DNA of 64,000 nucleotides from Octopus vulgaris. Taxonomy: Eukaryota. Positions 7,788-58,700 of this stretch are shown piece after piece. The position numbers and the translations under genes are program-made. Under the pieces are notes generated by a model that saw only the letters and a list, made by a program, of their open reading frames with translations, was not told the DNA's origin and ran no database searches. Where the stretch lies: NCBI GenBank assembly GCA_951406725.2, contig OX597826.1, forward strand, positions 38,378,001-38,442,000, in the 5' to 3' direction. Every line of letters begins with the position of its first letter. Within the stretch, counting starts at the first letter, position 1.

Positions 7788-8145
7788 TTATCTGGTATTT
7801 CAATATTTCAGGGTTAGGAACCCAATCTTCAGGAAATCTATGGAGATGTTGATTGCTAACTTCTCTGGTCTGTAGTGTGTTATGAAGCAGAAAAGTTGCC
7901 TATCAACATTTATGTATATCTCTAGCCACATTTCGTTCTTTAGTCGCTACCTTCACTTAATATTATGTATATATATAATACTATATATATATATAATATT
8001 TATCGCACACATACTCACACGGCAGTAACTTTCGCCAACCGAATTCAATCACAAAGCTTCGGTCCGCTCGAGGCTATAGCAGAAGACACCTGCCCAAAGT
8101 GCCATGCAGTGTATATATATATAATGTTATATATATATATATATA

Positions 8146-8911
8146 TTCGAAGCCTTTAATCTTCAGTCAAGAACCGGATCATCCTTGCAATTTCAGCTGA
8201 TTAATCTTGAGATTGCTCCAATCTGGCCAGCCCCAAGGAAAAACTAAGCTAAGAGCATTTGATTCCTTGGAAAAAGGATCAAATGTGTATGAAACAAGGA
8301 CAGAAAAACGGACGATGTTACACGATTATAAATACAAAAAAATACAAAAAAATAATACGAATATAAATGCAAAAAAAACAATAATAATAATAATAATAAT
8401 AACAGGACACAACAACAGGTGTCTTTCAACCAGATATGAATTGAACTCAGCTGGCGTATTGAGTGAGAATTAAGCCTTACAGCAGATGAAAACAACGATG
8501 TTACCGTGCCAGTGGTCACGAGAGAAAAAGAGGAGCAAAGGAATTAAGGAGGGGGAGAAGAGAGTGAAAAAGAGGAACAAAGAGATTAAGGAGGAGGAGA
8601 AGAAAGAGAGTGTGCAGCCCGAAGAATCAAGGATTGGCAAGAAAAATGAAAGACAGGACAGTGAAGTGCAAAGTAAGAAAGGCAAATATATATATGAATA
8701 CAAAATGGGACAAGAACGCAAAACATTCAAATAGACGATACAAAAATCACGGGCGGGTCATTCGAAGCCTCTAATCTTCAGTCAAGAACCGGATCATCCT
8801 CGCAATTTTGGCTGATTAATCTTGAGATTGCTCCGATCTGGCCAGGCCCAAGGAAAAACTAAGCTACGAGCATTAGATTTCTTGGAAAAAGGATCGAATG
8901 TATATGAAACA
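8146..8911 (-). mobile_element. Diverged relative of the 780-bp array family (~615-bp unit with two rearranged-hammerhead repeats)
   Basis: Motif ttcgaagcc...tcttcagtcaagaaccggatcatcc...gattaatcttgagattgctcc at 8146-8219 and again at 8761-8834; (TA)n on both flanks. Confidence 0.8.
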
Positions 8912-15854: not shown

Positions 15855-16660
15855 AGTGTAAGTACCTTGAGAGAGAAGTTGGACCTAAGAAGCATCAGTT
15901 GCGGTGTGCAATAGAGATGTTTGCGCTGGTATGGCCATGTGGCGAGAATGGATGAAGATAGGTGTGTGAAAAAGTGCCACACCCTAGCTGTTGAGGGAAC
16001 CTGTGGAAGAGGCAGACCCAGGAAAACCTGGGATGAGGTGGTGAAGCACGACCTTTGAACTTTAGGTCTCACCGAGGAAATGACTAGAGACCGAGACCTT
16101 TAGAAGTATGCTGTGCGTGAGAAGACCCGGCAGAACAAGTGAGACCATAATCCATGGCCTCAGTCCACTTATGCATACCTTTCCTTCTTGGGACACAAAA
16201 CTCTACTTGTGAAGACCTGTTGAGGCAAGTGAAAATCAAAAAATCAAAAAATCAAAAATCAAAATCGATCAACGTGAATGGAAATTGTAGCTGAGATACC
16301 AGTGCCGGTGGCACATAAGAGAACCATCTGAACGTGGCCGTTGCCAGCGCCGCCCCGACTGGCTTCCGTGCCGGTGGCACGTAAAAAGCACCATCCGATC
16401 GTGGCCATTTGCCTGCCTCGCCTGGCCTCCGTGCCAGTGGCACGTGAAAAGCACCATCCGACCGTGGCCGTTTGCCAGCCTCGTCTGGCACGTAAAAAGC
16501 CCCCACTACACTCATGGAGTGGTTGGCGTTAGGAAGGGCATCCAGCCGTAGAAACATTGCCAGATCAGACTGGGCCTGGTGCAGCCTTCTGGCTTCCCAG
16601 ACCCCAGTTGCACCGTCTAACTCATGCCAGCATGGAAAGCGGACGCTAAACGATGATGAT
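15855..16660 (+). mobile_element. RTE 3' end fused to SINE-like repeat with (GAT)n tail
   Basis: GRPRKTW motif, then internal tandem gtgccggtggcacgtaaaaagcaccatccga repeats and tail aaacgatgatgat. Confidence 0.75.
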
Positions 16661-18566: not shown

Positions 18567-20780
18567 TCTCTTATTATAAAAGGCAGATTTTATCTGCCTC
18601 CCTTTGTCAGTTATAGAAATCTACAATATAGGATTTCTTCAATTACAATTTACTTAGCATTTTTAAGAGTAGAATGCATCGGGTTTTGCCAGGTCCACTT
18701 TTTAAAATTTAAACTCCAATTAAGCAAAATTTACAGAAAACTCACATTCTGGTGTGTATGTCAAATGCTTTTCTTAATGTGTTTTACACCACACGCACAC
18801 GCACACACACAGTGTGCAACGAATAAAATGAAAGTAATTCACCTTTTGTAGTGAGTGACTCTTTCAGTCTGCCACTTCCTCTTTACACACATAGACACGC
18901 AAATATATAAATAAAATTGTAAGCTAACGTGCGTGTGTGTGTGTGTGACGGTGCGTGTGTGTGTGTGTGCGTGCGTGTGCGTGAGTGTGTGACTGGAAAG
19001 TATTTTAGGACGAATATAAGACCTATATCGGCGATGTTTCGCTTGTCGTAGCACAGGTTTCCGTCGATTTCCGTAAAAAACTTTTATTTTTTTACATAAG
19101 TAATGAGAGCGAAAGAGACTAAGAGAAAGCGATTGTATGACGAGAGAAGTTCTTTTGAAGTTACCATGCATGGGACGCATTGATGTACATGTGTGTGTGT
19201 GTGTGTGTTTGATGGAGTGTGGGAGACAGACAGTATGTTGTGTAAGTGAAGTGCTTCTGTTAGTGTGTGTGAAGAGACAGAGAGTAATGTGTGAAAGAGA
19301 GAGATAACTGAAATTTTTTACTCGGTTTATGTGTATATGTATGTATGCATGTATGTGTGTGTGTGTGTGTATGTATGGCCGATTCAGTGTTTACATTTTT
19401 TACGGAAATCGACGGAAACGTGTGCTACGACAAGCGAAACATCGCCCCTATATCCAAGTAGTAGAAAGATCGCCCAAAAGCGTATATAGATATTTAAATG
19501 TATTTGTATATTCATCTATACACAGATGTATGTATAATGTGTGTGTATATATTTCCATACACGTAACCATTCACTCCGCACAAAGGTTTTTAGGACGAAA
19601 ATAAGATCTAAAGTTATCTCTAAGTAGCACAGAGATCGCCCAAAAGTGTATATAGATATATAAATGTATTTATATATTCATCTATGCACACATGTATGTA
19701 TAATGTGTGTGTATATATTTCCATAGAGGTAACCATTCACTCCATACAAAGTTTTTTAGCACAAAAATAAGATCTAAAGTTATCTCTAAGAAACAGAAAG
19801 ATCGCCCAAAAGTGTATATAGATATTTAAATGTATTTATATATTCATCTATACACACATGTATGTATAATGTGCGCGTATATATTTCCATAGAGGTAACC
19901 ATTCAATCCATACAAAGTTTTTTAGGACGAAAATATTTATATATAAAAGAAAGGTTGTGTGTCTGTCTACTCCGATTTAGATTCCTAACTACTCCCACAT
20001 TTTGCGATGCAGTTTAACCAAAACCGGGTATCTTATAGTCGTGATTCATATCGAGCCCTTCTGGGTATTAGCGCACGTCTACGATGAGTCTATGATTTTA
20101 CAAATAATTTACCATCATTTTTTTCCATTTTAATGCATATTTTTTAAAATAAACGGAAGTAACTCTCAAACTTCACACCAATATGCGTGCTCATATGCGA
20201 CGTAATATCACATCAGCAGCATTTCCTCACACCCTCCTTGCACTTGGCGAAGGCAAAATACCAGGGGATGAAAATGGTAATATTGCCATCGATTCCATTT
20301 GTACCATTGTTAAGACGCCTTCTGATCTCAGAGATGCAGTGTTCCCAGATCTACAAGCTAATTATCAGAATATGGATTGGATTGGCAAAAAGGCTATACT
20401 GGCCCCGAGGAATAAAACTGTTCACCATATTAATGATGAAATGCTAAAACTCATTCCTGGGGAAGTCTATGTATATCAGTCTATCGATACAACTCCTGAC
20501 CCAGAGGACGTCATCAACTATCCAATAGAGGTACTCAATTCCTTTGAGCACCCCGGACTACCACCACACTTTCTCAAACTTAAAGTTGGTGCCCCTATAA
20601 TGCTCATCAGAAATTTGGTTCCCCCAAAACAATGCAATGGCACACGTTTGATCGTTAAGTCCTTATCTCCCACCGTAAGCTTATATCAATATTTGCCTGA
20701 ATAATCATCATAATTCAGTGCAATCATTAACAGTACTTTCAAGCAATTCAGCCCCGAGCAACGCCGGGCAATTCTGCTAG
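18567..20780 (+). mobile_element. Non-autonomous Helitron carrying a Pif1 helicase fragment
   Basis: 5' A|TC start; 3' hairpin cccgagcaacgccggg followed by CTAG|T at 20777-20781; helicase fragment inside. Confidence 0.8.
20183..20704 (+). pseudogene. Helitron Pif1-like helicase fragment
   Basis: KAILAPRNKTVHHIN, NYPIEVLNS.E.PGLPPH.LKLKVGAPIMLIRNL.P...CNGTRL are diagnostic Helitron helicase motifs. Confidence 0.9.
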
Positions 20781-23210: not shown

Positions 23211-24228
23211 CATCTCCCACACTATCCTTCAGGCAATGCCTTTCCATTTTGTCTACTGGGACCAAGTGGCAAACTAACATGCTGTGAGGAAGAGGAAAGA
23301 TATTGTACTGGGGTGAGGTAAAGAGAATAGCTCTCTTGTACATCAAACAGCTGATACAATGAAAGAGAGATTGAATGGAAGATATAAATGCCAGAGGGAA
23401 AAGAGACACAACCGCACAGAATGATTAAGAGAAGATTTATTGATATAATGCGTGCCATATATACAGAATAGTAGACAGGCTGTCATGAGAACAAATGTAT
23501 GTGTGCGTGTGTTAAGTACATATAAGAATGGCAATGAAGAAGAAGACAGTGAAAGAGTCTATAACCATTGAAATGAGAAGTTAATATACACAAGAAAGAT
23601 AAGAATACCAATTCATAGTCAATTGTACACAGTAGTTGAAATACTGTATCAAGAAGTCACAGCTATGATGCTGAGCCGGTTACTGGTACAGGTCGTATGT
23701 GAAGTCGTGGCTGTGATGCTGCTGCCTGGGTCACTTGATACAGGAGTTCATGCAGGTTGTATATTTGCTGTTGGTCCATGGTGAAGTAATTTACAAACAG
23801 TGGAGTGATGGAACCTGGGTGAATTGCTTGCTGAGCTGTGTATGTAGAGAGATGATGGTGACAACAAAGTTGATAAGTCTCAACGTAGCTGTTGTGGAGT
23901 GATGTTGTCTGGAGCTGGTGCTGAAACTGGCTGTGTCTTGTGCGGTCAGTTGCAAGACCTTAAAAGGTCTGGAACCAAAAAACTTCAAAACGAGGTAAAG
24001 GTGAATTTTTATAAGGAGCAGTAGGCTCAAATGGGGTTGAGGACAGGTTGTTCCATGTGATTTTAATTATATGTGGCAGTTGGCACAATTGAGTAAGAGA
24101 CAAATTGCCCTAATGCCAACCATTCAGAGTAGTGGACACAACAGGATCCAAATAGTGGCCAAAGGCTAGCAGTTCCCTGGTACGTTCAAAAGCACATAAT
24201 AATATAAAAGCACATATATATATATATA

Positions 24229-27200
24229 TATAGGTAAACAGTAAAAATAATTACAGACATGGACAAGAACATGAAACGCCACAGAGACGACACAAGAACC
24301 ACAGGACGGGACATTCGAAGCCCTCAGTCATCAGTCAAGAACCAGATCATCTTAGCAATTTCGGCTGATTAATCTTGAGATTGCTCCGATATGGGCAGCC
24401 CGCCAAGGGAAATCTAAGCCAAGTGCATTAGATCCCCTGGAAGAAAGCTTCGAATGTATACAACACGAGGACGGAAAACGAACGAAGTACACGAACAAAA
24501 ATACAGAATACGTGACAACAATAAGAATACAAAAACGTAAAAACAATAACGGTAAAATAAAGTATAAAAAATAAACAACAAAACAAAACCAGGACGTAGG
24601 ACAAGGGTCTTTCGACAGGACGAATTGAGTATGGGGCTGGCTTGTGAAGTTGTGCCTAATGGCCACAGGGAGACGAACAAGTACGTGTTGCTTCAGCGGC
24701 TGCTGGAACGAAAAGAGCGCTCAACAGCGGCTAGCGGTCACGTGAGAACAAAAGACAAGAGAAAGGGACAGATGAAAAGAGAGAGAAGGTGGACGAGGGA
24801 GGAGAAGAAAGAGACAGATCGAGGGGGCTGGAGGTGAGAGAGATAGAGAAACGTAGAAGGGGGGGAAAGACGGATGGAGAGGGAAAGAAAGGAGGGGGAA
24901 TAAGGGAGGAGAGAGAGAGAGAGAAAGAAAGATTAAGAGTCGTATCAATGCTTGAGAAAAAATATACTTATCGTATAAGGACAAATGTGGATACGTAGCC
25001 GCCGATTATATAGGTAAACAGTAAAAATAATTACAGACATGGACAAGAACATGAAACGCCACAGAGACGACACAAGAACCACAGGACGGGACATTCGAAG
25101 CCCTCAGTCATCAGTCAAGAACCAGATCATCTTAGCAATTTCGGCTGATTAATCTTGAGATTGCTCCGATATGGGCAGCCCGCCAAGGGAAATCTAAGCC
25201 AAGTGCATTAGATCCCCTGGAAGAAAGCTTCGAATGTATACAACACGAGGACGGAAAACGAACGAAGTACACGAACAAAAATACAGAATACGTGACAACA
25301 ATAAGAATACAAAAACGTAAAAACAATAACGGTAAAATAAAGTATAAAAAATAAACAACAAAACAAAACCAGGACGTAGGACAAGGGTCTTTCGACAGGA
25401 CGAATTGAGTATGGGGCTGGCTTGTGAAGTTGTGCCTAATGGCCACAGGGAGACGAACAAGTACGTGTTGCTTCAGCGGCTGCTGGAACGAAAAGAGCGC
25501 TCAACAGCGGCTAGCGGTCACGTGAGAACAAAAGACAAGAGAAAGGGACAGATGAAAAGAGAGAGAAGGTGGACGAGGGAGGAGAAGAAAGAGACAGATC
25601 GAGGGGGCTGGAGGTGAGAGAGATAGAGAAACGTAGAAGGGGGGGAAAGACGGATGGAGAGGGAAAGAAAGGAGGGGGAATAAGGGAGGAGAGAGAGAGA
25701 GAGAAAGAAAGATTAAGAGTCGTATCAATGCTTGAGAAAAAATATACTTATCGTATAAGGACAAATGTGGATACGTAGCCGCCGATTATATAGGTAAACA
25801 GTAAAAATAATTACAGACATGGACAAGAACATGAAACGCCACAGAGACGACACAAGAACCACAGGACGGGACATTCGAAGCCCTCAGTCATCAGTCAAGA
25901 ACCAGATCATCTTAGCAATTTCGGCTGATTAATCTTGAGATTGCTCCGATATGGGCAGCCCGCCAAGGGAAATCTAAGCCAAGTGCATTAGATCCCCTGG
26001 AAGAAAGCTTCGAATGTATACAACACGAGGACGGAAAACGAACGAAGTACACGAACAAAAATACAGAATACGTGACAACAATAAGAATACAAAAACGTAA
26101 AAACAATAACGGTAAAATAAAGTATAAAAAATAAACAACAAAACAAAACCAGGACGTAGGACAAGGGTCTTTCGACAGGACGAATTGAGTATGGGGCTGG
26201 CTTGTGAAGTTGTGCCTAATGGCCACAGGGAGACGAACAAGTACGTGTTGCTTCAGCGGCTGCTGGAACGAAAAGAGCGCTCAACAGCAGCTAGCGGTCA
26301 CGTGAGAACAAAAGACAAGAGAAAGGGACAGATGAAAAGAGAGAGAAGGTGGACGAGGGAGGAGAAGAAAGAGACAGATCGAGGGGGCTGGAGGTGAGAG
26401 AGATAGAGAAACGTAGAAGGGGGGGAAAGACGGATGGAGAGGGAAAGAAAGGAGGGGGAATAAGGGAGGAGAGAGAGAGAGAGAAAGAAAGATTAAGAGT
26501 CGTATCAATGCTTGAGAAAAAATATACTTATCGTATAAGGACAAATGTGGATACGTAGCCGCCGATTATATAGGTAAACAGTAAAAATAATTACAGACAT
26601 GGACAAGAACATGAAACGCCACAGAGACGACACAAGAACCACAGGACGGGACATTCGAAGCCCTCAGTCATCAGTCAAGAACCAGATCATCTTAGCAATT
26701 TCGGCTGATTAATCTTGAGATTGCTCCGATATGGGCAGCCCGCCAAGGGAAATCTAAGCCAAGTGCATTAGATCCCCTGGAAGAAAGCTTCGAATGTATA
26801 CAACACGAGGACGGAAAACGAACGAAGTACACGAACAAAAATACAGAATACGTGACAACAATAAGAATACAAAAACGTAAAAACAATAACGGTAAAATAA
26901 AGTATAAAAAATAAACAACAAAACAAAACCAGGACGTAGGACAAGGGTCTTTCGACAGGACGAATTGAGTATGGGGCTGGCTTGTGAAGTTGTGCCTAAT
27001 GGCCACAGGGAGACGAACAAGTACGTGTTGCTTCAGCGGCTGCTGGAACGAAAAGAGCGCTCAACAGCGGCTAGCGGTCACGTGAGAACAAAAGACAAGA
27101 GAAAGGGACAGATGAAAAGAGAGAGAAGGTGGACGAGGGAGGAGAAGAAAGAGACAGATCGAGGGGGCTGGAGGTGAGAGAGATAGAGAAACGTAGAAGG

Positions 27201-28538
27201 GGGGGAAAGACGGATGGAGAGGGAAAGAAAGGAGGGGGAATAAGGGAGGAGAGAGAGAGAGAGAAAGAAAGATTAAGAGTCGTATCAATGCTTGAGAAAA
27301 AATATACTTATCGTATAAGGACAAATGTGGATACGTAGCCGCCGATTATATAGGTAAACAGTAAAAATAATTACAGACATGGACAAGAACATGAAACGCC
27401 ACAGAGACGACACAAGAACCACAGGACGGGACATTCGAAGCCCTCAGTCATCAGTCAAGAACCAGATCATCTTAGCAATTTCGGCTGATTAATCTTGAGA
27501 TTGCTCCGATATGGGCAGCCCGCCAAGGGAAATCTAAGCCAAGTGCATTAGATCCCCTGGAAGAAAGCTTCGAATGTATACAACACGAGGACGGAAAACG
27601 AACGAAGTACACGAACAAAAATACAGAATACGTGACAACAATAAGAATACAAAAACGTAAAAACAATAACGGTAAAATAAAGTATAAAAAATAAACAACA
27701 AAACAAAACCAGGACGTAGGACAAGGGTCTTTCGACAGGACGAATTGAGTATGGGGCTGGCTTGTGAAGTTGTGCCTAATGGCCACAGGGAGACGAACAA
27801 GTACGTGTTGCTTCAGCGGCTGCTGGAACGAAAAGAGCGCTCAACAGCGGCTAGCGGTCACGTGAGAACAAAAGACAAGAGAAAGGGACAGATGAAAAGA
27901 GAGAGAAGGTGGACGAGGGAGGAGAAGAAAGAGACAGATCGAGGGGGCTGGAGGTGAGAGAGATAGAGAAACGTAGAAGGGGGGGAAAGACGGATGGAGA
28001 GGGAAAGAAAGGAGGGGGAATAAGGGAGGAGAGAGAGAAAGAGAAAGAAAGATTAAGAGTCGTATCAATGCTTGAGAAAAAATATACTTATCGTATAAGG
28101 ACAAATGTGGATACGTAGCCGCCGATTATATAGGTAAACAGTAAAAATAATTAGACATGGACAAGAACATGAAACGCCACAGAGACGACACAAGAACCAC
28201 AGGACGGGACATTCGAAGCCCTCAGTCATCAGTCAAGAACCAGATCATCTTAGCAATTTCGGCTGATTAATCTTGAGATTGCTCCGATATGGGCAGCCCG
28301 CCAAGGGAAATCTAAGCCAAGTGCATTAGATCCCCTGGAAGAAAGCTTCGAATGTATACAACACGAGGACGGAAAACGAACGAAGTACACGAACAAAAAT
28401 ACAGAATACGTGACAACAATAAGAATACAAAAACGTAAAAACAATAACGGTAAAATAAAGTATAAAAAATAAACAACAAAACAAAACCAGGACGTAGGAC
28501 AAGGGTCTTTCGACAGGACGAATTGAGTATGGGGCTGG
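24229..28538 (-). mobile_element. Tandem array of 5.5 x 780-bp non-coding units, retrozyme-like, with rearranged hammerhead ribozyme
   Basis: Units start at 24229, 25009, 25789, 26569, 27349 and 28129 (last partial). Only ~3 differences seen (26290, 28039, 2-bp deletion near 28153). Flanked by (TA)n. Confidence 0.9.
24319..24385 (-). ncRNA. Candidate non-circularly permuted hammerhead ribozyme (repeated every 780 bp; 6 copies)
   Basis: Minus strand: agcaaUC^ucaaga-uuaauc-agccGAAAuugcu-aagaugaucuggu-ucuugaCUGAUGA-cugag-ggcu. Stem I ucaaga/ucuuga, stem III agcaaU/Auugcu, stem II agcc/ggcu. Confidence 0.7.
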
Positions 28539-28568
28539 AGCATAGATTCGGCTGAAATTCCTCTAATA

Positions 28569-28614
<46 letters not shown>

Positions 28615-28644
28615 TATTAGAGGAATTTCAGCCGAATCTATGCT
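28539..28644. repeat. Perfect inverted repeat centred on (TA)n at the array junction
   Basis: agcatagattcggctgaaattcctctaatatatatg-(TA)n-catatatattagaggaatttcagccgaatctatgct. Confidence 0.95.
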
Positions 28645-30794
28645 ATAATATGATGATTGAAACAGGGCCATTCATTAAATTTAGAAAAAATTTCATGAAG
28701 CATGAAGCATGCAAAAAATAAACAGAATGAACGTTTTTCATGGATGAGGAATGAGTTATTTCAAAAGCATCAATAATGAGGTCATAAAAAAATGCAATCA
28801 AATAGAGCATTGAGGAAAGCCTTGAGAAACGTAAAGAAATCCTGTTACAAAACACTCCCTTAAACTGAAAAATGACAAAGGAGATAATCAGAGCAATACT
28901 ATGTATGTTATTGCGTTACTGAAACCATATCTGTTGGATTTTCTTTTTTTACAGTAAACAAGTTGTCATTGGGCTTGAAACTTGGAACATATTCAAAGAA
29001 AATTAACCTTGTGCTAGAAATGATGGAATTCAAAAGAACTGTGTAAAAAAGCATAAACATCACATGTATCATTTTATCATTGCTCAAACATTTACGTCCA
29101 GTTAAATATTAGGATTCATTTTCTTTATCCTAACATACACTGGTTTCATATTTGAGACAGAATGTTAATTTGAACTGTTGTTTCTAGCAAAACATCCTGT
29201 CTCATCCACACTCACACATCAAATCCACTTCAAAATCAGAAACTACAAACCTTGTTCCGTTACTTTTAGCAAAATTGCTTAATTTACCTTATATCTCTAA
29301 AGAGTTTTCTTCTGTCAAGTATTTCCAAACATTTTGTGTTGCTTTTTAGCTAGAAATTTACTAAATTCCTGAAGGTCCTTTCTTACAAAAAAAATAATAA
29401 ATAAATAATAATAACCACAATAAGTGCAATCAGTTTTTAACGAAGAAAATTTTCTAAACTGTAACTTTTTCCATTGGACTGCTTTTGTTTCTAATAATTT
29501 TTACAGAGAAACAAACGAGCAAGAAGATTCACATTTATTTTTACAGCAATGTATCTTTTTGGAATTTCATTTACAATTTAATTTAATATTTTTCAATTCT
29601 GTTCATTTTAGAGTGCATAATACATATTTATTGTATTTATATGTGTATATCCTAGGATCACCACCCTCAAACAAAATTAACTGAATAGTTTTTAAATATA
29701 TATGAGAGATAGAGGGCTCTGGATATGCCCAAGCCTCTTCCTCCACAATGCAGGATACTGAACAATGTCACACCTGTGCCACACACAATATGCAGAAGGG
29801 AAGAAAATGTTCTGACTGTAACAATTTCTTCCACAATTCTTGTATCAAACTCACTCGACACACCATGGAATCCCTGCACCGGTAGCACTGCTCGTGCTGC
29901 CTAATCTCTGGTGAAGGGAAATCCCTTCCAACACTAAAAGCAGACACAGTGGTATGGCATGGTGGGGACTTGACCCCACTCAGTCTTGATGTGAATCTCC
30001 CACCTCAGGCAGTCACAGAGAATCATCGCCAAAAGTTGCCTGCACTTTTGTGGCCGAAATGCTAGCATTGTCTATAGACCAGGTAGTTGCTACCAACAGC
30101 CCACAAAGCTGGAACAAATTATTCAGTCTTGTAATGCTTGTTCTTTGGTTCCTATTAGCAGGTTGGGGTTCAATTCCCTCCACACAATATTGCATCCTTC
30201 AGCCATTCCTCACCAACTAGCCTCTTGTTTCTCAGGTTGCACACTGGCACCATCATTATGCATGTAGGCCTTGTCCAATTGTGCAAGAAGGCCCCAAGTC
30301 TAGGTCAATCACAAACTAATTGAGAGCACACATGCTGGCCTCAAGAGACACAATGCTCCTACCCACACTGGATATTCTGGACACTGTCCATCTCAAAGAT
30401 CCAGACCCTTCAGCATATATCAAGGATTTCCAAATCTCTGACAGTGACGCAGCCTTCATCATGTTCAGTGATGATGGGCCATTGCGCTGCAAGCTGCAGT
30501 GGTGGAGAAAATGGCCTGCAACCTGGTTACCTCAAAGATTAATCTTACCACACTCCACCAAGGCGGGAGCATGTTTGCTCCAATCTATCATTACTCCAAT
30601 GATCTTCATGGGATATTCCCCGCCATGCCCAAGATTTTCTCATATCAGCCAACCTGACTGCACTGAAGAACAGAGTGTGTGTGTGTGTATGTGTGTCCTG
30701 GTGTAAATGCAGTAAACAACAGAAAAAAGCAATACAAAAGGGACAACGTTTGATAAATACAATATGAACTTAATGCTTTATTTTGGGATTTTTT

Positions 30795-31600
30795 TTTTAC
30801 ATTCTTTCCAGAAGTGAAGATAAATATGGGATGGTTGATAGAGATTGTCTATCAGGTGATGTTAGTGATGAAATTAAGGAAATTAAGGAAGTTATTGGAA
30901 ATGAAAGGTATGAAGTTGGGGAAGGGATAAAATGAGTTGACAAACACGAAGGAATGTAACTCTTCGTAGGAGAAACATTTTGCATCAATTGTTTTGTTGA
31001 TTTGACAGCAGAATGGCTCTGGGGTAAGGGATTAGTGAACTGGGAAAAGATTTGGGTCTTGATGGAACCATTAAATAAGCTGGCATAGTTGATCCTATTC
31101 TTGTACCCATAGTCACTCTAGGAATTGTTCATAGATCTTTTCTGTAAAGGAAAATTATTGAGAGTGCAGAGAGGGTGTGGCAGACAAAGAAGGACAGAGG
31201 TGCTTGGACGAAGAGTGATGCGGAAGTGAAGGAAGTGTTTTGGCAGTGGCATGGAGGCCTTCATTGTGGAGGTTGACAATGTATTAAGAACTGATGTCCA
31301 TGATCAGAATGTAGTGGGAGGGGCCAAGGGATGAGAAGCGAGTAGAAGAGGCAGAGAGCACGGCTGGATGTTGGAGGGAAAGAGAGTGTCAAGGTAGGAG
31401 AGGATGAGTTGTGTGGGGCAGTTACAAGCATAGATGATAAAGTGGCTAGTGTTTTCAGGTTTATGGATCTTAAGGATGAAGTATATGGTGGAGGTGTGAG
31501 GGAGGTAGAAGGGAGATGTGTAGTTTTTAGATGGGGGGGGGGGGCAGAGGGCACAAGATGCCAGAAGAGAGAGTTCTCAGACGGTTTCTCTATGTAAATA
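30795..31600 (-). mobile_element. Penelope-like element relic (RT fragment)
   Basis: Minus strand at ~31383-31495 reads IYFILKIHKPENTSHFIIYACNCPTQLILSYLDTL, matching the Penelope RT motif Y.LPKIHK....RPIVS....PT..IS.YLD. Confidence 0.7.
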
Positions 31601-33738: not shown

Positions 33739-34006
33739 CATGCATGAGGAAGGGGAATTGATCTGAATGAGATTTAGCTGCTGTTTCTAACAGGCCAAGT
33801 AAGTACATAAGCATTTATTCAAACCTAATAAGCATTTATTCATAAAAACAGAAAAAAAATGAAGTTTGTTAGAAATTAAAAGTTTGTGATGCACTAATAA
33901 TTCTAAATGTATGAAAGCATGGTATTATATATAATCATTGACCCTAATTTGATGTTTGTTCTTCTAATCAATGCTTATATATGTGTATGTCTGTGTGTAT
34001 ATATAT

Positions 34007-36743
34007 GACTCAGAAATCCACCTGCAGGGCTACATCCTTTTCAGATGTGACAGAGGAAAAAGGCGAGGTGGGGGTGTTGCTGTGTATGTTAAGTCTGAGC
34101 ACAAACCATCCAGCGGTATTCTACCCACTAATGCTCAACCTACAACAAAATTTGATGCCGTCTATTGCAAGCTGAGCCTATCTGAGTTTTGCCTGCCCAT
34201 GTTGGCTGTCTACAGGCCGCCTCTTGCCGACCCCCAGGACGATGCTCATTTACTCGAGGCGATAAGATTCGTTTCAGCTTCGCATGACTGTTTGGTACTA
34301 GGAGACTTCAACGCTCCCACGATCGATTGGCCCGCATCAATTTGTACATCTTCCCAGTTCGGCCAGGCCCTTCTTGACGTGGCTGAAGATTGTTTTCTAT
34401 CGCAACATGTTGAATATCCGACAAGGCATCGGTCTGGGCAGCAGCCATCTATGCTAGATCTGGTATTCTACCGCTATCCAAGATCAGTGTCAGACGTATC
34501 TGTGTGCGCCCCTCTTGCCAAGAGTGATCATGCGGTCCTGAAGTTCGTCATGCACACAACTTTTTCTACGCCCACGACTACTTCGCTGCCACGTAGAGTC
34601 TTCTCTGCAATTAATCTTGAAATTCTAACCGAGGCTTCCGCGCTTCTGGACTGGCGATCCCTGATGACGTTGTCCTCAGTTGACGAACTATGGTCATCCC
34701 TCAAAGCATATGTAATCTGTTTGACTGACCAGGCAGTTCCCGTTGGGCTTCCCAAGAGGAAGAAACACAAGCCCTGGGTGACGAAGAAAGTTAAACGAGA
34801 ACGTTGACTCAGAGATATTGCTTGGGCTGAATTCAAAAATCTGGATTCGACTGCAGCTTTTGAGGTGTACAAAACTCAACGAGACCGAGCCGTGAAAATT
34901 GAAAAGAAAGAACGCTTCAGTTATGAATACAAAATCGCGGCAAATGCCAGTAGCAATCCAAAAACCTTCTTTGCCCATGTCCAGCGGAATTCCCGCTTGA
35001 ACAACCAGATTGCAACGTTGGTAGACTCAACAGGCGTATCGATTGAGGACCCTTATCAACAGAGTCAGTTATTTGCCGAGGCTTTTTCAACTATTTTCAA
35101 ACAAGATGATGGTCGTGAACCCCCTCCATTTGTTAGATCGGTACCTCCAATGCTTCGATTGGTCATCACGCGGGACGAAGTCAAACGTGTTATTCAAGGC
35201 CTCGATGTCAACAAGGGTCACGGCCCTGACGGCATACACCCATGGGTTATCAAAGCGTTGGCTCCGGTCATCTGCGAGCCCTTAACACGACTATTCAATA
35301 TGTCATTGGCGACGGGTGTTATACCTGCAGACTGGAGAACAGCGATAATCTGCCCAATTTTCAAGAAAGGGAGCCGCGAAGACCCGCTTAACTACCGACC
35401 GGTTTCCCTTACATCAATAATCAGCAAGATGTTCGAAACCATCCTTAAGAAAAGTATGATGCTCCACCTCCTAAACACAGCCTCTATCTCTGATTCCCAA
35501 CACGGCTTCGTGCCGAAGAGATCATGCTTGACCAACTTACTAGTAATGGAAGAATTGGTGACGCGCATCCTCGATGATAGTGATGCTGTTGACATCGTTT
35601 TATTGGACTTTGCCAAAGCTTTTGACTCGGTAAACCACCACCTATTACTTGTCAAGCTTCAAGCATATAGTTTCCATCCGGATATTGTACGATGGGTTGG
35701 TGCCTTCCTCTCAGATCGCTCCTTCCAAGTCCAAGTTAATGGTTCGCGGTCCGACGTCTCCAGTGCGAGCAGTGGCGTGCCTCAAGGTTCAGTGCTTGGG
35801 CCCTTGTTGTTCTTAGTCTTCATAAATGACTTGCCCGACGACCTCACGCAACACACCCTTCTATTTGCCAACGATATCAAACTGGTCACTCCTCGCGGTA
35901 ATATAGAGGATCTTCGTCGATGCCTCCACCAAATTTGGAAGTGGTCTAACGATTGGGACCTGTGTCTGAACGTGTCAAAGTGCTGTCATCTGCCTGTCGG
36001 CTCTACTCCTGCAACTCAACTTGATTTCGAGCTGGGTCGTCTGCTGCTGGAGAGGACCGATCAGGTAAAGGACCTGGGTATCTTGGTGGATTCCTCCTTT
36101 TCGCCTTTGGCCCAGTGCGTCCATGCTGCCAACAAAGCACGCGGAATTCTGTTCTTGATTTGACGGTCATTCGGAATGCTCACAGCAGCCATATTCCTAC
36201 CACTCTATGTCACGCTGGTGAGACCCATATTGGAGTATGGGATTCAAGCCTCTTCTCCTTATCTCCTCAAAGACATACAGCATCTCGAAAGAGTCCAGAA
36301 GCTGGCTACCCGCATGGTTCATGGTCTCAAAAATTTGTCCTACGAAGAAAGGCTGAGGACGCTCGACCTTTATTCTCTTGAAAAACGACGCCGCCGTGGT
36401 GATCTCAGTCTCGCCCACAACATCATAAGCGGAAAGTGTAACCTCTCGAAAGAGCTGTTCTTCACTCCTGCTCCAGAGCGTCAGCTGCGGGGTCATTCCG
36501 AAAAGCTCTACCTGCGACGATTTCATCTCAATCGAAGAAGAGGAGCTTTCTCCGTCCGGGTGCGGATCCATGGAACAAGCTGCCTGACGAGATGGTGAAG
36601 ATGCCGACGACCGCTTTGTTCAAAGCCTCCCTGGACCTCAAGTGGCCTGAACTCTTTACATGAACACCACCCTGTACTTAACTCCATGTCCCCCTACATG
36701 GCCTTGGTATTTGCTTTTGAGCCAAATTAACTAACTAACTAAC
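34007..36743 (+). mobile_element. 5'-truncated CR1/L2-group LINE (APE endonuclease + RT), inactivated
   Basis: GDFNAP, SDH, GPDGI, NYRPVSLTS, QHGF, LDFAKAFDSV, GVPQGSVLGP motifs; YADD altered to FAND; stops at 34805 and 36161; frameshift near 36562; (TAAC)n tail. Confidence 0.95.
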
Positions 36744-54040: not shown

Positions 54041-55678
54041 ACAGATAGTTGCCATGGGACCAAATACCTAATCAAGGGACATTAGGAAGAGCATCCAGCC
54101 AAAACAAACATGCAGCCCTCTGGAGCGCATGCTGGATTTTGTTAAACTGTTCAACTCATGCCAGCATGGAAGGCAGATGATAAAAGGGGATGATGCTGAA
54201 GATGATGCTGATGATGAAATCTCTCTTCTCCAGCCACTAACATTGTTTAAAGGAAGGGCAAACACCAATAAAATTGAATGCAAGTATCACCATAGGCAAT
54301 GCCTCCTCAGAGGGCAAAGAGCAGAACCAGGTATCACATGGTACCTCATCCAATGTCTAATCAGAAACAGGTACCACTGGGCATTCAACCCAAAAGACCC
54401 TGCTTACTTATTTAGCAGTTTTAACAGATCCGTGCCGGTGGCACATAAAAAGCACCATCCGATCGTGGCTGTTGCCAGCCTCGCCTGGCCCCCGTGCCGG
54501 TGGCAAGTAAATAGCACCATCCGACCGTGGCCGTTTGCCAGCCCCGTCTGGCACCTGTGCCGGTGACACGTAAAAAGCACCCACTACACTCACGGAGTGG
54601 TTGGCGTTAGGCAGGGCATCCAGCCGTAGAAACATTGCCAGATCAGACTGGGCCTGGTGCAGCCTTCTGGCCTCCCAGACCCCAGTTGAACCGTCCAACC
54701 CATGCTAGCATGGAAAGCGGACGCTAAATGATGATGATGAAAGCAGACAAAAGTACAAACCAAATAACTCACTAGACTTAACTGGCAACTAAGATCTTCC
54801 ACTTTCTGTTCCAGATGAGCTCGTTCAGTTAACGATGAATCTGTGGACAGCTGGAAAGAAGGAAAAAATCCAAGAAAATATTAAAATATTTTGGGAAATC
54901 GAAATCAATGACTGGCATCTGTGCTAGTGGAGTGCTAAGAGCACCATCCGAGTGTGACTGTTGCTAGAGCAACTGACATTACTGACAGTACTTAACACAA
55001 CAAAGCTTTACATTTTACTTTTGACAAGCTTTTTCTAAAAAAGTGAAACCAGTCAAGTAAATAAACATCTGTTAAAATTGCAATTTCAAACCTTCTTTCA
55101 TATATATTTCCACTCGTGTGCTACCTTACAACTTCACTTTGTTATATATATATATAGGCGTACCTTTCTTGCATTAGACACTAAACTCTGCTTGCGAAGA
55201 CCTGTTAAGGCAAGCGAGACTGAAATCAAATTCAATGACAGAACCACGTGACTGGCATCCATGCTAGTGAAGAGCACCATCCAAGCGTGATCATTATCAG
55301 TGTCGCTTTACTGGTACTTGTACCGGTGGTACGTGAAAAACAACATTCGAGCGAGGGCGTTTCCAGTGCCACTTGACTGGCTCCTGTGCAGGTGACACGT
55401 AAAAACACCATTTGAGCTAGGCTGTTGCCAGTACTGCCTGATTGGCCCTCATGCCAGTGGCACGTAAAAAACACCCACTACACTCTCAGAGTGGTTGGCG
55501 TTAGGAAGGGCATCCAGCTGTAGAAACTCTACCAGATCAGATTGGAGCCTGGTGCAACCATCTGGGTCACCAGTCCCCAATCAAACCGTTCAACCCATGC
55601 CAACATGGAAAGTGGACATTAAACGATGATGATGATGATACACATACGTCTATACATATGCATGTATACATATACATC

Positions 55679-55716
<38 letters not shown>

Positions 55717-58700
55717 TATATACATATAAGAGGGATGACCATAGTGGTCATCCTTCTTATATATATGTAATACAATTTACTGAACTTTCAGGTTTTAATA
55801 TGCTAGACCACTGGTGTTAAATTGATGTTAAATTAATATCCAATTTCTCACCCTCATTTTAAATTTATATATATATATACACATACATAATATGTCTGTA
55901 TGTAATGTGGTGGTGTGTGTAATGAGGTGGTGTGTATATGTTGAGGAGGGTGATTGAATTAACTGGAGCAAGAAAACTAAGTAGAGCAAGGAAAACATGA
56001 AGGAGACAGGTGGAGGTGGAGATTAGGAGGGTTAGTTTGTAAAAGGAGGATGCCCAAAATTGGGCAAGATGGCAAGATGGTGTGAGGGCAATTGCTATGG
56101 CACTGAGGTAGATCCAGCCACGCCCCTTGATAGGGACAAAACCTGGATTTAAAACACTGTAAAGCCGAAATATAACAATCTGCTTAATTATCATCACACA
56201 ACACTTGCAACATACTTTAAACCTGAAAATTTAATCAAGCATCAATATAAATTTCTTAACCTTTTCGTTACTGTATTTCTGTTGAGATGCTCCGTGTTTT
56301 TCTCAATTATTTTAGATATAACAAAGAATCTATTAAAATAACATAGTTATCATTAAGCTAGTGTTAGGAACATTAATTATAACTAAGGTTTGGTGGAAGA
56401 TTTTAATTTGAAACTTATGTAAACAAGACATTTGTACGCCAGAGCCAGTTTCAGCCCCAGGTTCATAATGAAAGGGTTAAACCACCTCATCCTGAAGGGG
56501 CTTAGTGAAGTGTATTCTTGCATTTGGCTGATGTCTTATTTTTGAGAACAACCTCAACAGGTGTTATTAGTGCCCTCTTTTTTCCTATGAATGATAATAA
56601 AAATATAAATTCATTAAAAAAAAATCTTAAGACTGCAGCTCAACTATTTAACCCTTTAGCATTCGGATTAATCTGTCAATAGAAATGCTTATTTGTTCAG
56701 ATTATCTTAAAAGACATCATGTATTATCTCATAGCTCTGGGATTTCAATAATGTGATTGTTTATTTTTAGAATGACATTGTCAGCCAGATGTGAGAGGCT
56801 GGATCTGGCCAGTTTGATTATGAAACAGATAAAATATTTGGGCCAGATGTGGCCAGTTTAAATGGTAAAGGGTTAAGATAAGAAATTACCCGAAGTCTTT
56901 CTTGTAAGCTGTCTCTCTCCGTCATTATTCTCTGAAGGTCAGCTGAGGCATTATCTCGTTCATTCTCTACTTGGCGCAACACGGCTTGAGCAGCTAACGA
57001 TGTTCTGGGTGATTTTGGAGAGCGAAGTATTTCTCGTCTCAATTTCTGGAGTTCCTCCTTGGCCTTTAATGATATGATGAGTTAATTTATTACAGATAAT
57101 TAATTAGAGAGTAATTAAAGTAAATGAAACTGTAGTAGAAGAATGAGATAACAGAAGAAAGAGGCAGAAAATAGGTTTTCATTACATCCACCAACACTGC
57201 TCAGAAACCAATTAAAGGATGGAGATGAAACAGAAAAGCCATAATCCAAACTGTTTTATCAAGAGTTCTTGGAATATATTGTCAAGAATTATTCTACAAT
57301 AAAATTATACAATGGTTTGAACAAATAACAGCACTAAACATTTAACACAATAATAATTCCTTCTGACTTCGGCACAGGACCAATTATTAACGAGTCACCA
57401 GGTAGACAAATGATTCAACTCAACTATCTACTCCAGGTAAACAGGTGAGACAATATTTAATATTGCTATCCTCACCCCCGCCCTGCACCAAATTGAAAAA
57501 ACTGTGTGACTAGAGAACCCACAATTCAGGAGAGGACTCAGTATATTTGGAATGCATTGTATATTAGAATTTACTAAGAACAATATCACACACCCACACA
57601 CCACCACTATCACCATACACACACCACACATACAGGTTGCCCCTGGCAACTGGGAACAAAACAAACTACAATAAAACAAACAAATAAAAAAAAACATCAT
57701 ACAGAAAACTATTTCTCCCAGAAAAATGAGACACATGTTCAAGCAAAAATATCTCTGAAACAGGCCATTAGATAAATCCTCCTTCATTCCCTAATGACGG
57801 CCCCAATGCAGCCAGGAAATAACAGCATACCAGGATCAAGTGGCTCCCACCTATGCCCTCCACCATGCTCATGATGGCAACCCTCAATGTGCCCCTGACA
57901 CTATGGAGGCCACTGTCTGGTTTCATCCCTGATGATGCTCCAAAAGTAGAAATCTACAGGTTTGAAACCCAGAGAGCCAGGAGGGCACATGCTTTTATAG
58001 GTACATGATTACATGGTACTCGCAGAACTTCACAGACATGTGCTCTCCCTCCTCATCACATAGGATCAGCACCTGAGGTCTTTCTGGGCCATATGCCTGA
58101 TGGTAGACTTTGCCACTTTTGTGCCCTCATCACAGACATAAGAAAAAAAATAGGAATGAGATAATTGATAAATGAGAACCAATGAAAGAACTTACTCCAT
58201 CATACATGTCTTTGAGGTTGTCTCGTTCTTTAGTTAACACTTTTACATTAGCACGAACCTACAACAAAATAAAAATGTATTTGTAATAGCAAGAATGATG
58301 ATGACGACGATGAAGAGGAGGAGGTGAAAGTATTGCGGCAAGAAGGTGCAAGTGTAGTTGTGTGGTAAGAGGTTTTGCTCCCCAACCACATGTTTCTAGG
58401 TTCAGTCCCACTACGTGGCACCTTGGGCAAGTGTCTTCTACAGTAACCAGAGGCCAACCAAAGCCTTCTGAATGGATTTGGTAGATGGAAACCAAGAGAA
58501 GCCCATCATGTATATATATATATATAAGAGAATAAAGGGTATGTACACCGCTATATATATATATAAAATACCAAATGGGACAAGAATGCAAAACATTCAG
58601 AAGACAATACAAAAAACACGGACGGGTCATTCGAAGCTTTCAATCTTCAGTCAAGAACCGGATCATCTTCGCAATTTTGGCTGATTAATCTTGATATATA

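Follow-up and report, generated by a model that had tools for sequence, protein, structure and literature searches.

A 780-bp tandem retroelement array of Octopus vulgaris with a predicted split hammerhead ribozyme in each unit

We analysed 64,000 nucleotides of Octopus vulgaris (assembly GCA_951406725.2, contig OX597826.1, positions 38,378,001 to 38,442,000, forward strand), referred to below as the window; positions are those of the window unless a locus is named. The window holds a head-to-tail array of a 780-bp non-coding element, and every unit carries a predicted hammerhead ribozyme whose chain is opened at an unusual place. The full account we propose, which we consider fairly likely, is that of a (TA)n-targeting element mobilised in trans by Penelope-type machinery, with a split self-cleaving hammerhead and an RNA circle that would have been copied 5.5 times in the window.

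The array in the window

In the assembled sequence the array consists of five full units and one partial unit, starting at 24227, 25007, 25787, 26567, 27347 and 28127 with a constant spacing of 780 and seamless joins. Its RNA sense is the minus strand, with the fixed 3' end at 24227 and the truncated 5' end at 28538, the final matching base, which corresponds to unit position 414. Differences amount to three in all: one substitution in unit 3, one substitution in unit 5 and a 2-bp deletion in unit 6. For CpG the observed/expected ratio reaches 1.02 in the unit, compared with 0.39 elsewhere in the window, and the GC content of the unit is 44%. No credible open reading frame (ORF) was found in the unit, the longest stop-to-stop frame being 122 amino acids (aa) and the best Pfam match (E 0.07) lying below the cut-off. 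An earlier reading by a model that saw the letters and their ORFs (the sequence-only reading) had described about 5.5 units of 780 bp with some three differences, intact CpGs, no credible ORF, one ribozyme-like motif per unit, a minus-strand start in mid-unit at 28538 and a left end merging with a (TA)n tract near 24229. All of this holds on comparison of the units, with six motifs in total. The array and its two junctions are as follows.

24227..28538, minus strand: 780-bp non-coding retroelement array, 5.53 copies (unit comparison; polarity from family ends)
24215..24232, no strand: (TA)n target tract merged with the unit's own TATATA, the likely priming site (sequence; 344 exact junctions of this kind genome-wide)
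28539..28644, no strand: perfect palindrome of 106 bp with 53-bp arms around (TA)n at the 5' junction of the array (sequence)

The sequence-only reading does not mention the palindrome. Since the flank beside it (28620-28900) is single-copy, the simplest view is that target DNA was copied here in inverted form, likely at the 5' junction. A comparable inverted flank copy is present at 1 of 53 other loci (left flank, L014), and we rejected such copies as a trait of the family. The idea that the right-flank hairpin represents a second ribozyme family was also dropped, the hairpin being single-copy flank DNA.

A predicted split hammerhead in every unit

On the minus strand the hammerhead blocks, with the core intact, follow each other as cleavage site, GAAA and CUGAUGA, which is the non-circular order SGC. 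The partner of stem II sits upstream of the cleavage block instead of right after CUGAUGA, which means that the chain is opened between A9 and G10.1; a partner directly 3' of CUGAUGA (offsets 0-2) scores at best 2/5 in the unit. The strand after the upstream stem II partner pairs with the strand before stem I', and this helix (P4) links stems I and II at their far ends. Two further elements are seen in the unit, namely a 15-bp helix between the strand after A9 and a strand further upstream (P0) and a hairpin just before G10.1 (P1). As a more tentative part of the model, P0 and P1 might hold A9 next to G10.1. The sequence-only reading had spoken of a permuted ribozyme. The ribozyme is indeed unusual, though it falls outside the circular types I-III: its permutation is non-circular, opened between A9 and G10.1. 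The six predicted ribozymes are listed below, followed by the parts of the one in unit 2.

24311..24457, minus strand: predicted split hammerhead, unit 1 (cut 24379/24378)
25091..25237, minus strand: predicted split hammerhead, unit 2 (cut 25159/25158; pairing and covariation)
25871..26017, minus strand: predicted split hammerhead, unit 3 (cut 25939/25938)
26651..26797, minus strand: predicted split hammerhead, unit 4 (cut 26719/26718)
27431..27577, minus strand: predicted split hammerhead, unit 5 (cut 27499/27498)
28209..28355, minus strand: predicted split hammerhead, partial unit 6 (cut 28277/28276)
25237-25223 and 25220-25183, minus strand: P0 5' strand and P1 hairpin
25180-25176 and 25174-25168, minus strand: stem II 5' strand and P4a
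25165-25160, 25159 and 25158-25153, minus strand: stem III', C17 and, after the cut, stem I
25147-25143, 25142-25139 and 25138-25134, minus strand: stem II 3' strand, GAAA and stem III
25128-25122, 25120-25115, 25114-25108 and 25105-25091, minus strand: P4b, stem I', CUGAUGA and P0 3' strand

Standard readings do not fit the motif. Type I, II and III hammerheads failed on stems or core, and a type I reading after CUGAUGA lacks the GAAA and has a triplet that is not kept in relatives. A search of Rfam with the unit motif yielded nothing, whether at the gathering score or with E<=10. Under plain folding the motif does no better than shuffles (z -0.66), but nested folding cannot show the pseudoknot; the unit is not rod-like either (z -0.36).

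A descriptor built for the SGC/split order was run on fetched loci. It found the family of the array and several others, with 0 matches in 2.7 Mb of shuffled sequence; the intact motif is also absent from 80 kb of arbitrarily picked genome sequence. Ten representatives (families A, B, A2, D, C, F, E, E2 and G, plus a Naiad-type copy; A is the young family of the array) were compared. With the upstream partner, 49 of 50 cells of stem II pair, as do 48 of 50 in stem III and 57 of 60 in stem I; single positions of these stems show as many as five pair types, and compensatory changes are many. P4 measures 4-9 bp in all ten, and the core positions are constant except in one decayed copy. In an independent MAFFT alignment of seven closer copies nine pairs change on both sides, a number reached in 0 of 500 shuffles, and 93% of cells are paired against 17-47% in slid-partner controls (one pair, at columns 34/66, is set on a gap column and contributes one cell). 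Covariation shows that the predicted stems I to III, as well as P4, are real, and we regard it as highly likely that the split-hammerhead fold as a whole is real too.

A number of points weigh against this view. The stem anchors were chosen by us, so the high pairing arises partly by construction, and relatedness among the families inflates the shuffle tests. Family G has a single representative with a mismatch adjoining the cut, and most families have a second, weaker partner for stem II downstream. P0 and P1 stand out in the unit (z -3.9 against shuffled flanks) but not in B, C and one Naiad copy (z -0.3, 0.2 and 0.6), and the score of family G is an artefact of its TA tract. To our knowledge no natural break of such size exists at A9/G10.1. 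One extra base at this place is natural in hammerheads of a viroid and of Penelope-like elements (PLEs) (PMC3705267, PMC4209133). Eckert et al. 2023 assumed that the CUGAnGA block cannot be interrupted (PMC10085705). Finally, AUC before the cut is rare among natural hammerheads, yet active (PMC1636495).

A dispersed family inserted in (TA)n

The sequence-only reading had suggested looking for other arrays and their end points. Carried out genome-wide (octopus genome G000, 2.8 Gb), this search returned 344 exact junctions of TA with the unit start, 107 exact internal unit-unit junctions and variable 5' ends; both counts are lower bounds because diverged copies are missed. Among the best full-unit matches, all 23 distinct other loci start at unit position 1 within (TA)n. 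The first 30 family insertions by position range from 66 to >1531 bp (median ~400); seven exceed one unit, 24 pass the predicted cut, and 22 of the 29 visible 5' ends pass directly into (TA)n. A fixed start in (TA)n combined with variable far ends is what target-primed reverse transcription would leave if it copied a minus-strand RNA from a fixed internal site and dropped off at random towards the 5' end. The family shows all the Penelope-like traits, i.e. a fixed 3' end, 5' truncation, partial tandems and a microsatellite target, and judging from its insertions it behaves like a non-autonomous Penelope-type retroelement.

The array in the window is the longest noted among at least 344 young insertions. 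From the junction counts the chance of finishing each further unit is ~24%, and random drop-off would then give 0.26 arrays with five junctions among 344 insertions. Hence it is an ordinary long-tail event of a dispersed family, as expected, and no singular event; further arrays of 3-4 units are present in the genome. Of the single TA-primed insertion event proposed from the sequence alone, the TA priming, the fixed 3' and variable 5' ends and the single-unit template (see below) stand, and the singularity falls.

Older relatives (family B, unit ~850 bp) are commoner, with 4043 first-look candidates. Two members and a further short relative lie in the window, and seven more non-coding families with the split fold, often nested next to other (TA)n insertions, were found elsewhere.

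8145..8384, minus strand: older relative (family B) that also carries the motif; identity with the unit 78% (sequence comparison)
8708..8904, minus strand: older relative (family B), 81% identical to the unit (sequence comparison)
58602..58697, minus strand: short older relative with its 5' end at the predicted cut (sequence comparison)
L086/L087 2005-2101; L212; L063; L241; L231; L046; L136: split fold of families C, F, E, E2, G, D and A2, as listed

An E-box-like motif (CACGTG) stands by a long pyrimidine tract in the RNA sense at 24736-24744 and at the equivalent places of every unit. The arrangement recurs in families A, B and D and may represent an internal promoter. In contigs of four sequencing runs, also in two other organisms, the motif region is the deepest-covered part of the unit, which indicates only that relatives exist.

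Copy ends at the predicted cut

Cleavage of the RNA should leave a trace in the cDNAs, some of which would end at the newly made 5' end. For a genome-wide footprint we used 723 minus-strand loci, one row each, with the TA junction <=28 nt from the GAAA block. Only 38 of these extend >=5 nt beyond the predicted cut, and the number of copy 5' ends per position drops ~15-fold, from 42.8 before the cut to 2.9 past it. The first 100 rows contain 27 distinct loci, six ending at the cut, 17 ending 2-10 nt short of it and four 10-15 nt past it. Likewise, two loci of a Naiad-type family with a different sequence (L117 and L118) start exactly at the cut predicted for that family. The step, which is driven mainly by the older families, survives a 4-fold loss of detection. 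It suggests, indirectly, that cleavage after AUC probably takes place in vivo. Two things count against this: AT microhomology and the smaller slack upstream may inflate the step, and the 24 of 30 family-A copies mentioned above read through the cut, so that cleaved linear RNA is not the usual template.

A probable single template for each array

Among 96 copies, units diverge by 0.17% within a locus (55 pairs) against 1.25% between loci (3910 pairs), from which it follows that each array derives from one unit. More can be learned from a four-unit array at another locus (L133, G000:C9:63368500-63374000), where the same five A-to-G changes (RNA sense) are present in all units. The changes are clustered within 15 nt of the motif, and the chance expectation of such a cluster is ~7e-6; the variant is absent elsewhere in the genome at up to one mismatch. 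Two changes fall in GAAA and would likely inactivate the ribozyme of this array. Octopus is known for heavy A-to-I editing. The simplest reading of L133 would be one A-to-I-edited RNA that was copied about 3.5 times, and the locus is possibly a fossil of an edited RNA template. On the other side, the genome as a whole shows no significant excess of A-to-G (8, compared with 9 T-to-C; p 0.07), so the case for editing rests on one locus. The uniformity of L133 also fits later homogenisation or re-priming on one linear molecule.

All in all, the pattern at L133 favours one template that was read repeatedly, and with reasonable likelihood this would be a circle, in line with what Cervera and de la Pena 2014 suggested for PLEs (PMC4209133). 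The 780-nt circle copied ~5.5 times, as put forward by the sequence-only reading, is thereby sustained as far as multimers from a single-unit template are concerned; the circle itself is favoured only.

Penelope-like elements and Naiads

Craig et al. 2021 (PMC8557442) reported that Naiads, a group of PLEs, are without canonical hammerheads, flagged eight 'half cores' and described cephalopod Naiads as long dead. For 18 of the 54 Naiad consensus sequences (names from metadata order) we inspected the final 450-600 nt by eye, and nine of these 3' ends show the split fold or type CSG. The split fold is present in five: two from octopus and one each from bobtail squid, coral and ctenophore, of which the squid copy is imperfect in stem II and the ctenophore copy in stem I. 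The other four, three nematodes and one spider, carry a clean and complete type CSG that includes the helix joining stems I and II (Naiad-3_Nbra, Naiad_Hcon, Naiad_Hpol and Naiad_Smim; File S5, PMC8557442). Circular permutation converts CSG and the split form into one another, and for CSG just two sequences, both from metagenomes, were known before (Eckert et al. 2023, PMC10085705). No motif was seen by eye in the remaining nine ends (Ppac, Sdum, 3_Dst, Mmer, Adux, 1_Chem, CGi, Mcor and Tama). If the split and CSG hammerheads are active, Naiads do carry self-cleaving ribozymes that standard descriptors have missed.

In the octopus genome a 17-nt motif of the published octopus Naiad consensus sequences has 365 matches, and the split fold lies ~850 nt behind a Naiad-type reverse transcriptase (RT) fragment in L184 (G000). 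This relic shares the fold with our unit, but not the sequence. Dispersed copies and co-occurring autonomous PLEs are both present in the genome, including an intact young family of Neptune type that targets (TA)n and has an open RT-GIY-YIG frame of 753 aa. Its five copies (L229, L230, L233, L235 and L236; minus strand; e.g. G000:C3:61673500-61680000) are 98.9-99.6% identical. A frame of ~350 aa lies upstream of the RT frame, and no standard hammerhead core was seen by eye in the 3' region.

This young Neptune-type family is a plausible driver in trans. Two findings weigh against our account. All Naiad RT matches are broken or short (150 of 3100 RT candidates scored), and blastn gave no similarity of the unit to the young Neptune-type family or to that of the relic near the array (five Neptune-type loci, two families). 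The search for an autonomous Penelope element sharing the motif, as suggested earlier, led to the split fold behind the Naiad-type RT fragment and, at the five Neptune-type loci, to no blastn similarity. The relic itself had been pointed out by the sequence-only reading as a Penelope RT ~2.5 kb from the array.

30790-31600, minus strand: degenerate Neptune-type PLE RT relic, old copy

The relic is there, but its link to the array is not: it belongs to an older separate Neptune-type family, whose members L094-L104 have (TA)n at their ends and contain a minimal core of type I-like form. Nothing connects it to the array, and we rejected it as the partner.

Proposed mechanism and alternatives

We propose that the non-coding element is likely mobilised in trans by a Penelope-type RT/endonuclease, and that the split hammerhead in each unit likely self-cleaves the RNA after AUC. 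The cleaved monomers would be ligated into a unit-length circle. A nicked (TA)n tract would then prime at the internal UAUAUA, 152 nt downstream of the cut, and synthesis would proceed round the template until random drop-off, copying the circle 5.5 times at the window locus. The driver would be an intact Penelope-type family, for example the young Neptune-type one, while the ribozyme architecture is common with Naiads.

The best surviving alternative, which we consider unlikely, keeps the element and its ribozyme without a circle: the enzyme would re-prime on one and the same linear RNA or copy an uncleaved multimeric transcript, an origin that has been proposed for the pseudo-LTR (long terminal repeat) tandems of Penelope. 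All PLEs typically form partial tandems (Craig et al. 2021, PMC8557442), and for an anole PLE in vitro unprocessed RNA was the dominant substrate, with internal priming and no need for cleavage (PMC11167929). The read-through of the cut in 24 of 30 family-A copies points in the same direction. However, the five private changes in all four units of L133 are hard to obtain from a multimeric transcript edited unit by unit, and the seamless 780-bp junctions also count against this alternative.

Very unlikely in our view is that the core folds as a regular type-SGC hammerhead, pairing stem II downstream and having 4-5 nt inserted after A9, or else that it is a structure which stalls the RT without cleaving. 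Families A, B, A2 and F do have such a downstream partner, scoring 4/5 at offset 5, and E, E2, G and the Naiad copy have wobble-rich versions at offsets 1-4. In C and D, however, it is weak or absent, its offsets vary and in the unit it is tied up in P0, whereas the upstream partner is the one that is almost always paired (49/50) and covarying. An RT stall would be expected 3' of the structure, whereas in two unrelated sequences copies end at the scissile bond.

Most improbable is a 1.5-unit insertion that was later expanded by unequal crossing-over or over-expanded by the assembler: near-identical units fit recent local expansion or collapse, and yet three differences distinguish the units, the 0.26 arrays of this length predicted by random drop-off alone are accompanied by other arrays of 3-4 units, and the ribozyme and the family would be left unexplained.

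Returning to the split hammerhead and the copied circle, we lean towards a broader claim: an active, pseudoknotted seventh natural hammerhead wiring that is widespread in animal retroelements (octopus, squid, coral and ctenophore), its circular permutation, type CSG, in nematode and spider Naiads, and a genomic record of both the cut site and the rolling-circle copying of an edited circle. Non-circular hammerheads, earlier without a host element, would now be present in large numbers in animal retroelements, and in a wiring that the six-type scheme excludes. If true, this overturns the view that Naiads proliferate without hammerheads and bears on the role of the ribozyme in PLEs. The work also yields a new descriptor for genome scans, a compact ribozyme stretch of ~150 nt and two putative genomic records of the RNA intermediate, namely the step in copy ends at the predicted cut and an array that a single edited template would have given rise to.

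Other features in the window

The remaining features of the window are relics and repeats.

33968-36598, plus strand: LINE-type endonuclease and RT frames (Pfam Exo_endo_phos, RVT_1), broken by stops
20153-20704, plus strand: Pif1-type helicase fragment, probably a Helitron relic
19449-19935: 166-bp tandem repeat adjoining the Pif1-type helicase fragment
16302-16489, 54430-54581 and 55326-55475: ~63-bp tandem repeats, one short interspersed family

Comparison with known systems

Our search of the literature, in which subscription journals were poorly covered, found no description of split wiring or of non-circular hammerheads in animals; the supplements of Eckert et al. and of the preprint cited below could bear on this. 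In the genomes of known organisms Eckert et al. give one weak GCS case only, their SGC examples coming from metatranscriptomes and their CSG examples from metagenomes.

The closest animal counterparts in structure are the non-LTR retrozymes (PMC7229834; bioRxiv 10.64898/2026.07.22.740005), which likewise consist of non-coding tandem units with one hammerhead core each, have a GC content <50%, occur as dispersed monomers plus multimers and are proposed to depend on PLEs. Their units are reported to measure 51-972 bp (bioRxiv 10.64898/2026.07.22.740005), so the octopus unit falls inside this range and, contrary to what the sequence-only reading had supposed, is not exceptionally long. They are, however, defined by a type I hammerhead. 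The octopus unit, being a non-circular permutation, fails the type I test, and its ribozyme is missed by type I descriptors and Rfam. A further difference is its strict (TA)n targeting, and its circle is predicted here from genomic sequence.

Among PLEs, the Naiads (PMC8557442) resemble the octopus family in their (TA)n preference, 5' truncation and partial tandems. They have an ORF with an N-terminal GIY-YIG endonuclease and a C-terminal RT, which the octopus unit lacks; the octopus family is young, and no sequence similarity to any Naiad was established. Chlamys elements such as MRC1 (Craig et al. 2021, PMC8557442) are alike in that they are non-autonomous PLE derivatives with multicopy head-to-tail insertions. 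Elements of this type are from green algae and have a 3' sequence in common with their autonomous partner, whereas for the octopus unit no sequence-sharing partner was found among the loci compared.

With regard to the ribozyme, the nearest relatives are hammerheads of the types SGC and CSG (Eckert et al. 2023, PMC10085705). In type SGC a strand of stem II follows CUGAnGA at once on the 3' side, with an insert of 0-2 nt, which is not so in the octopus unit, and the octopus ribozyme, opened inside block C between A9 and G10.1, stands outside the six-type scheme. What they share is the reversed cyclic order of the blocks, an intact core (CUGAnGA, GAAA, UH and G10.1-C11.1) with stems I and III, and a short link from stem I to stem II with an extra helix joining the two.

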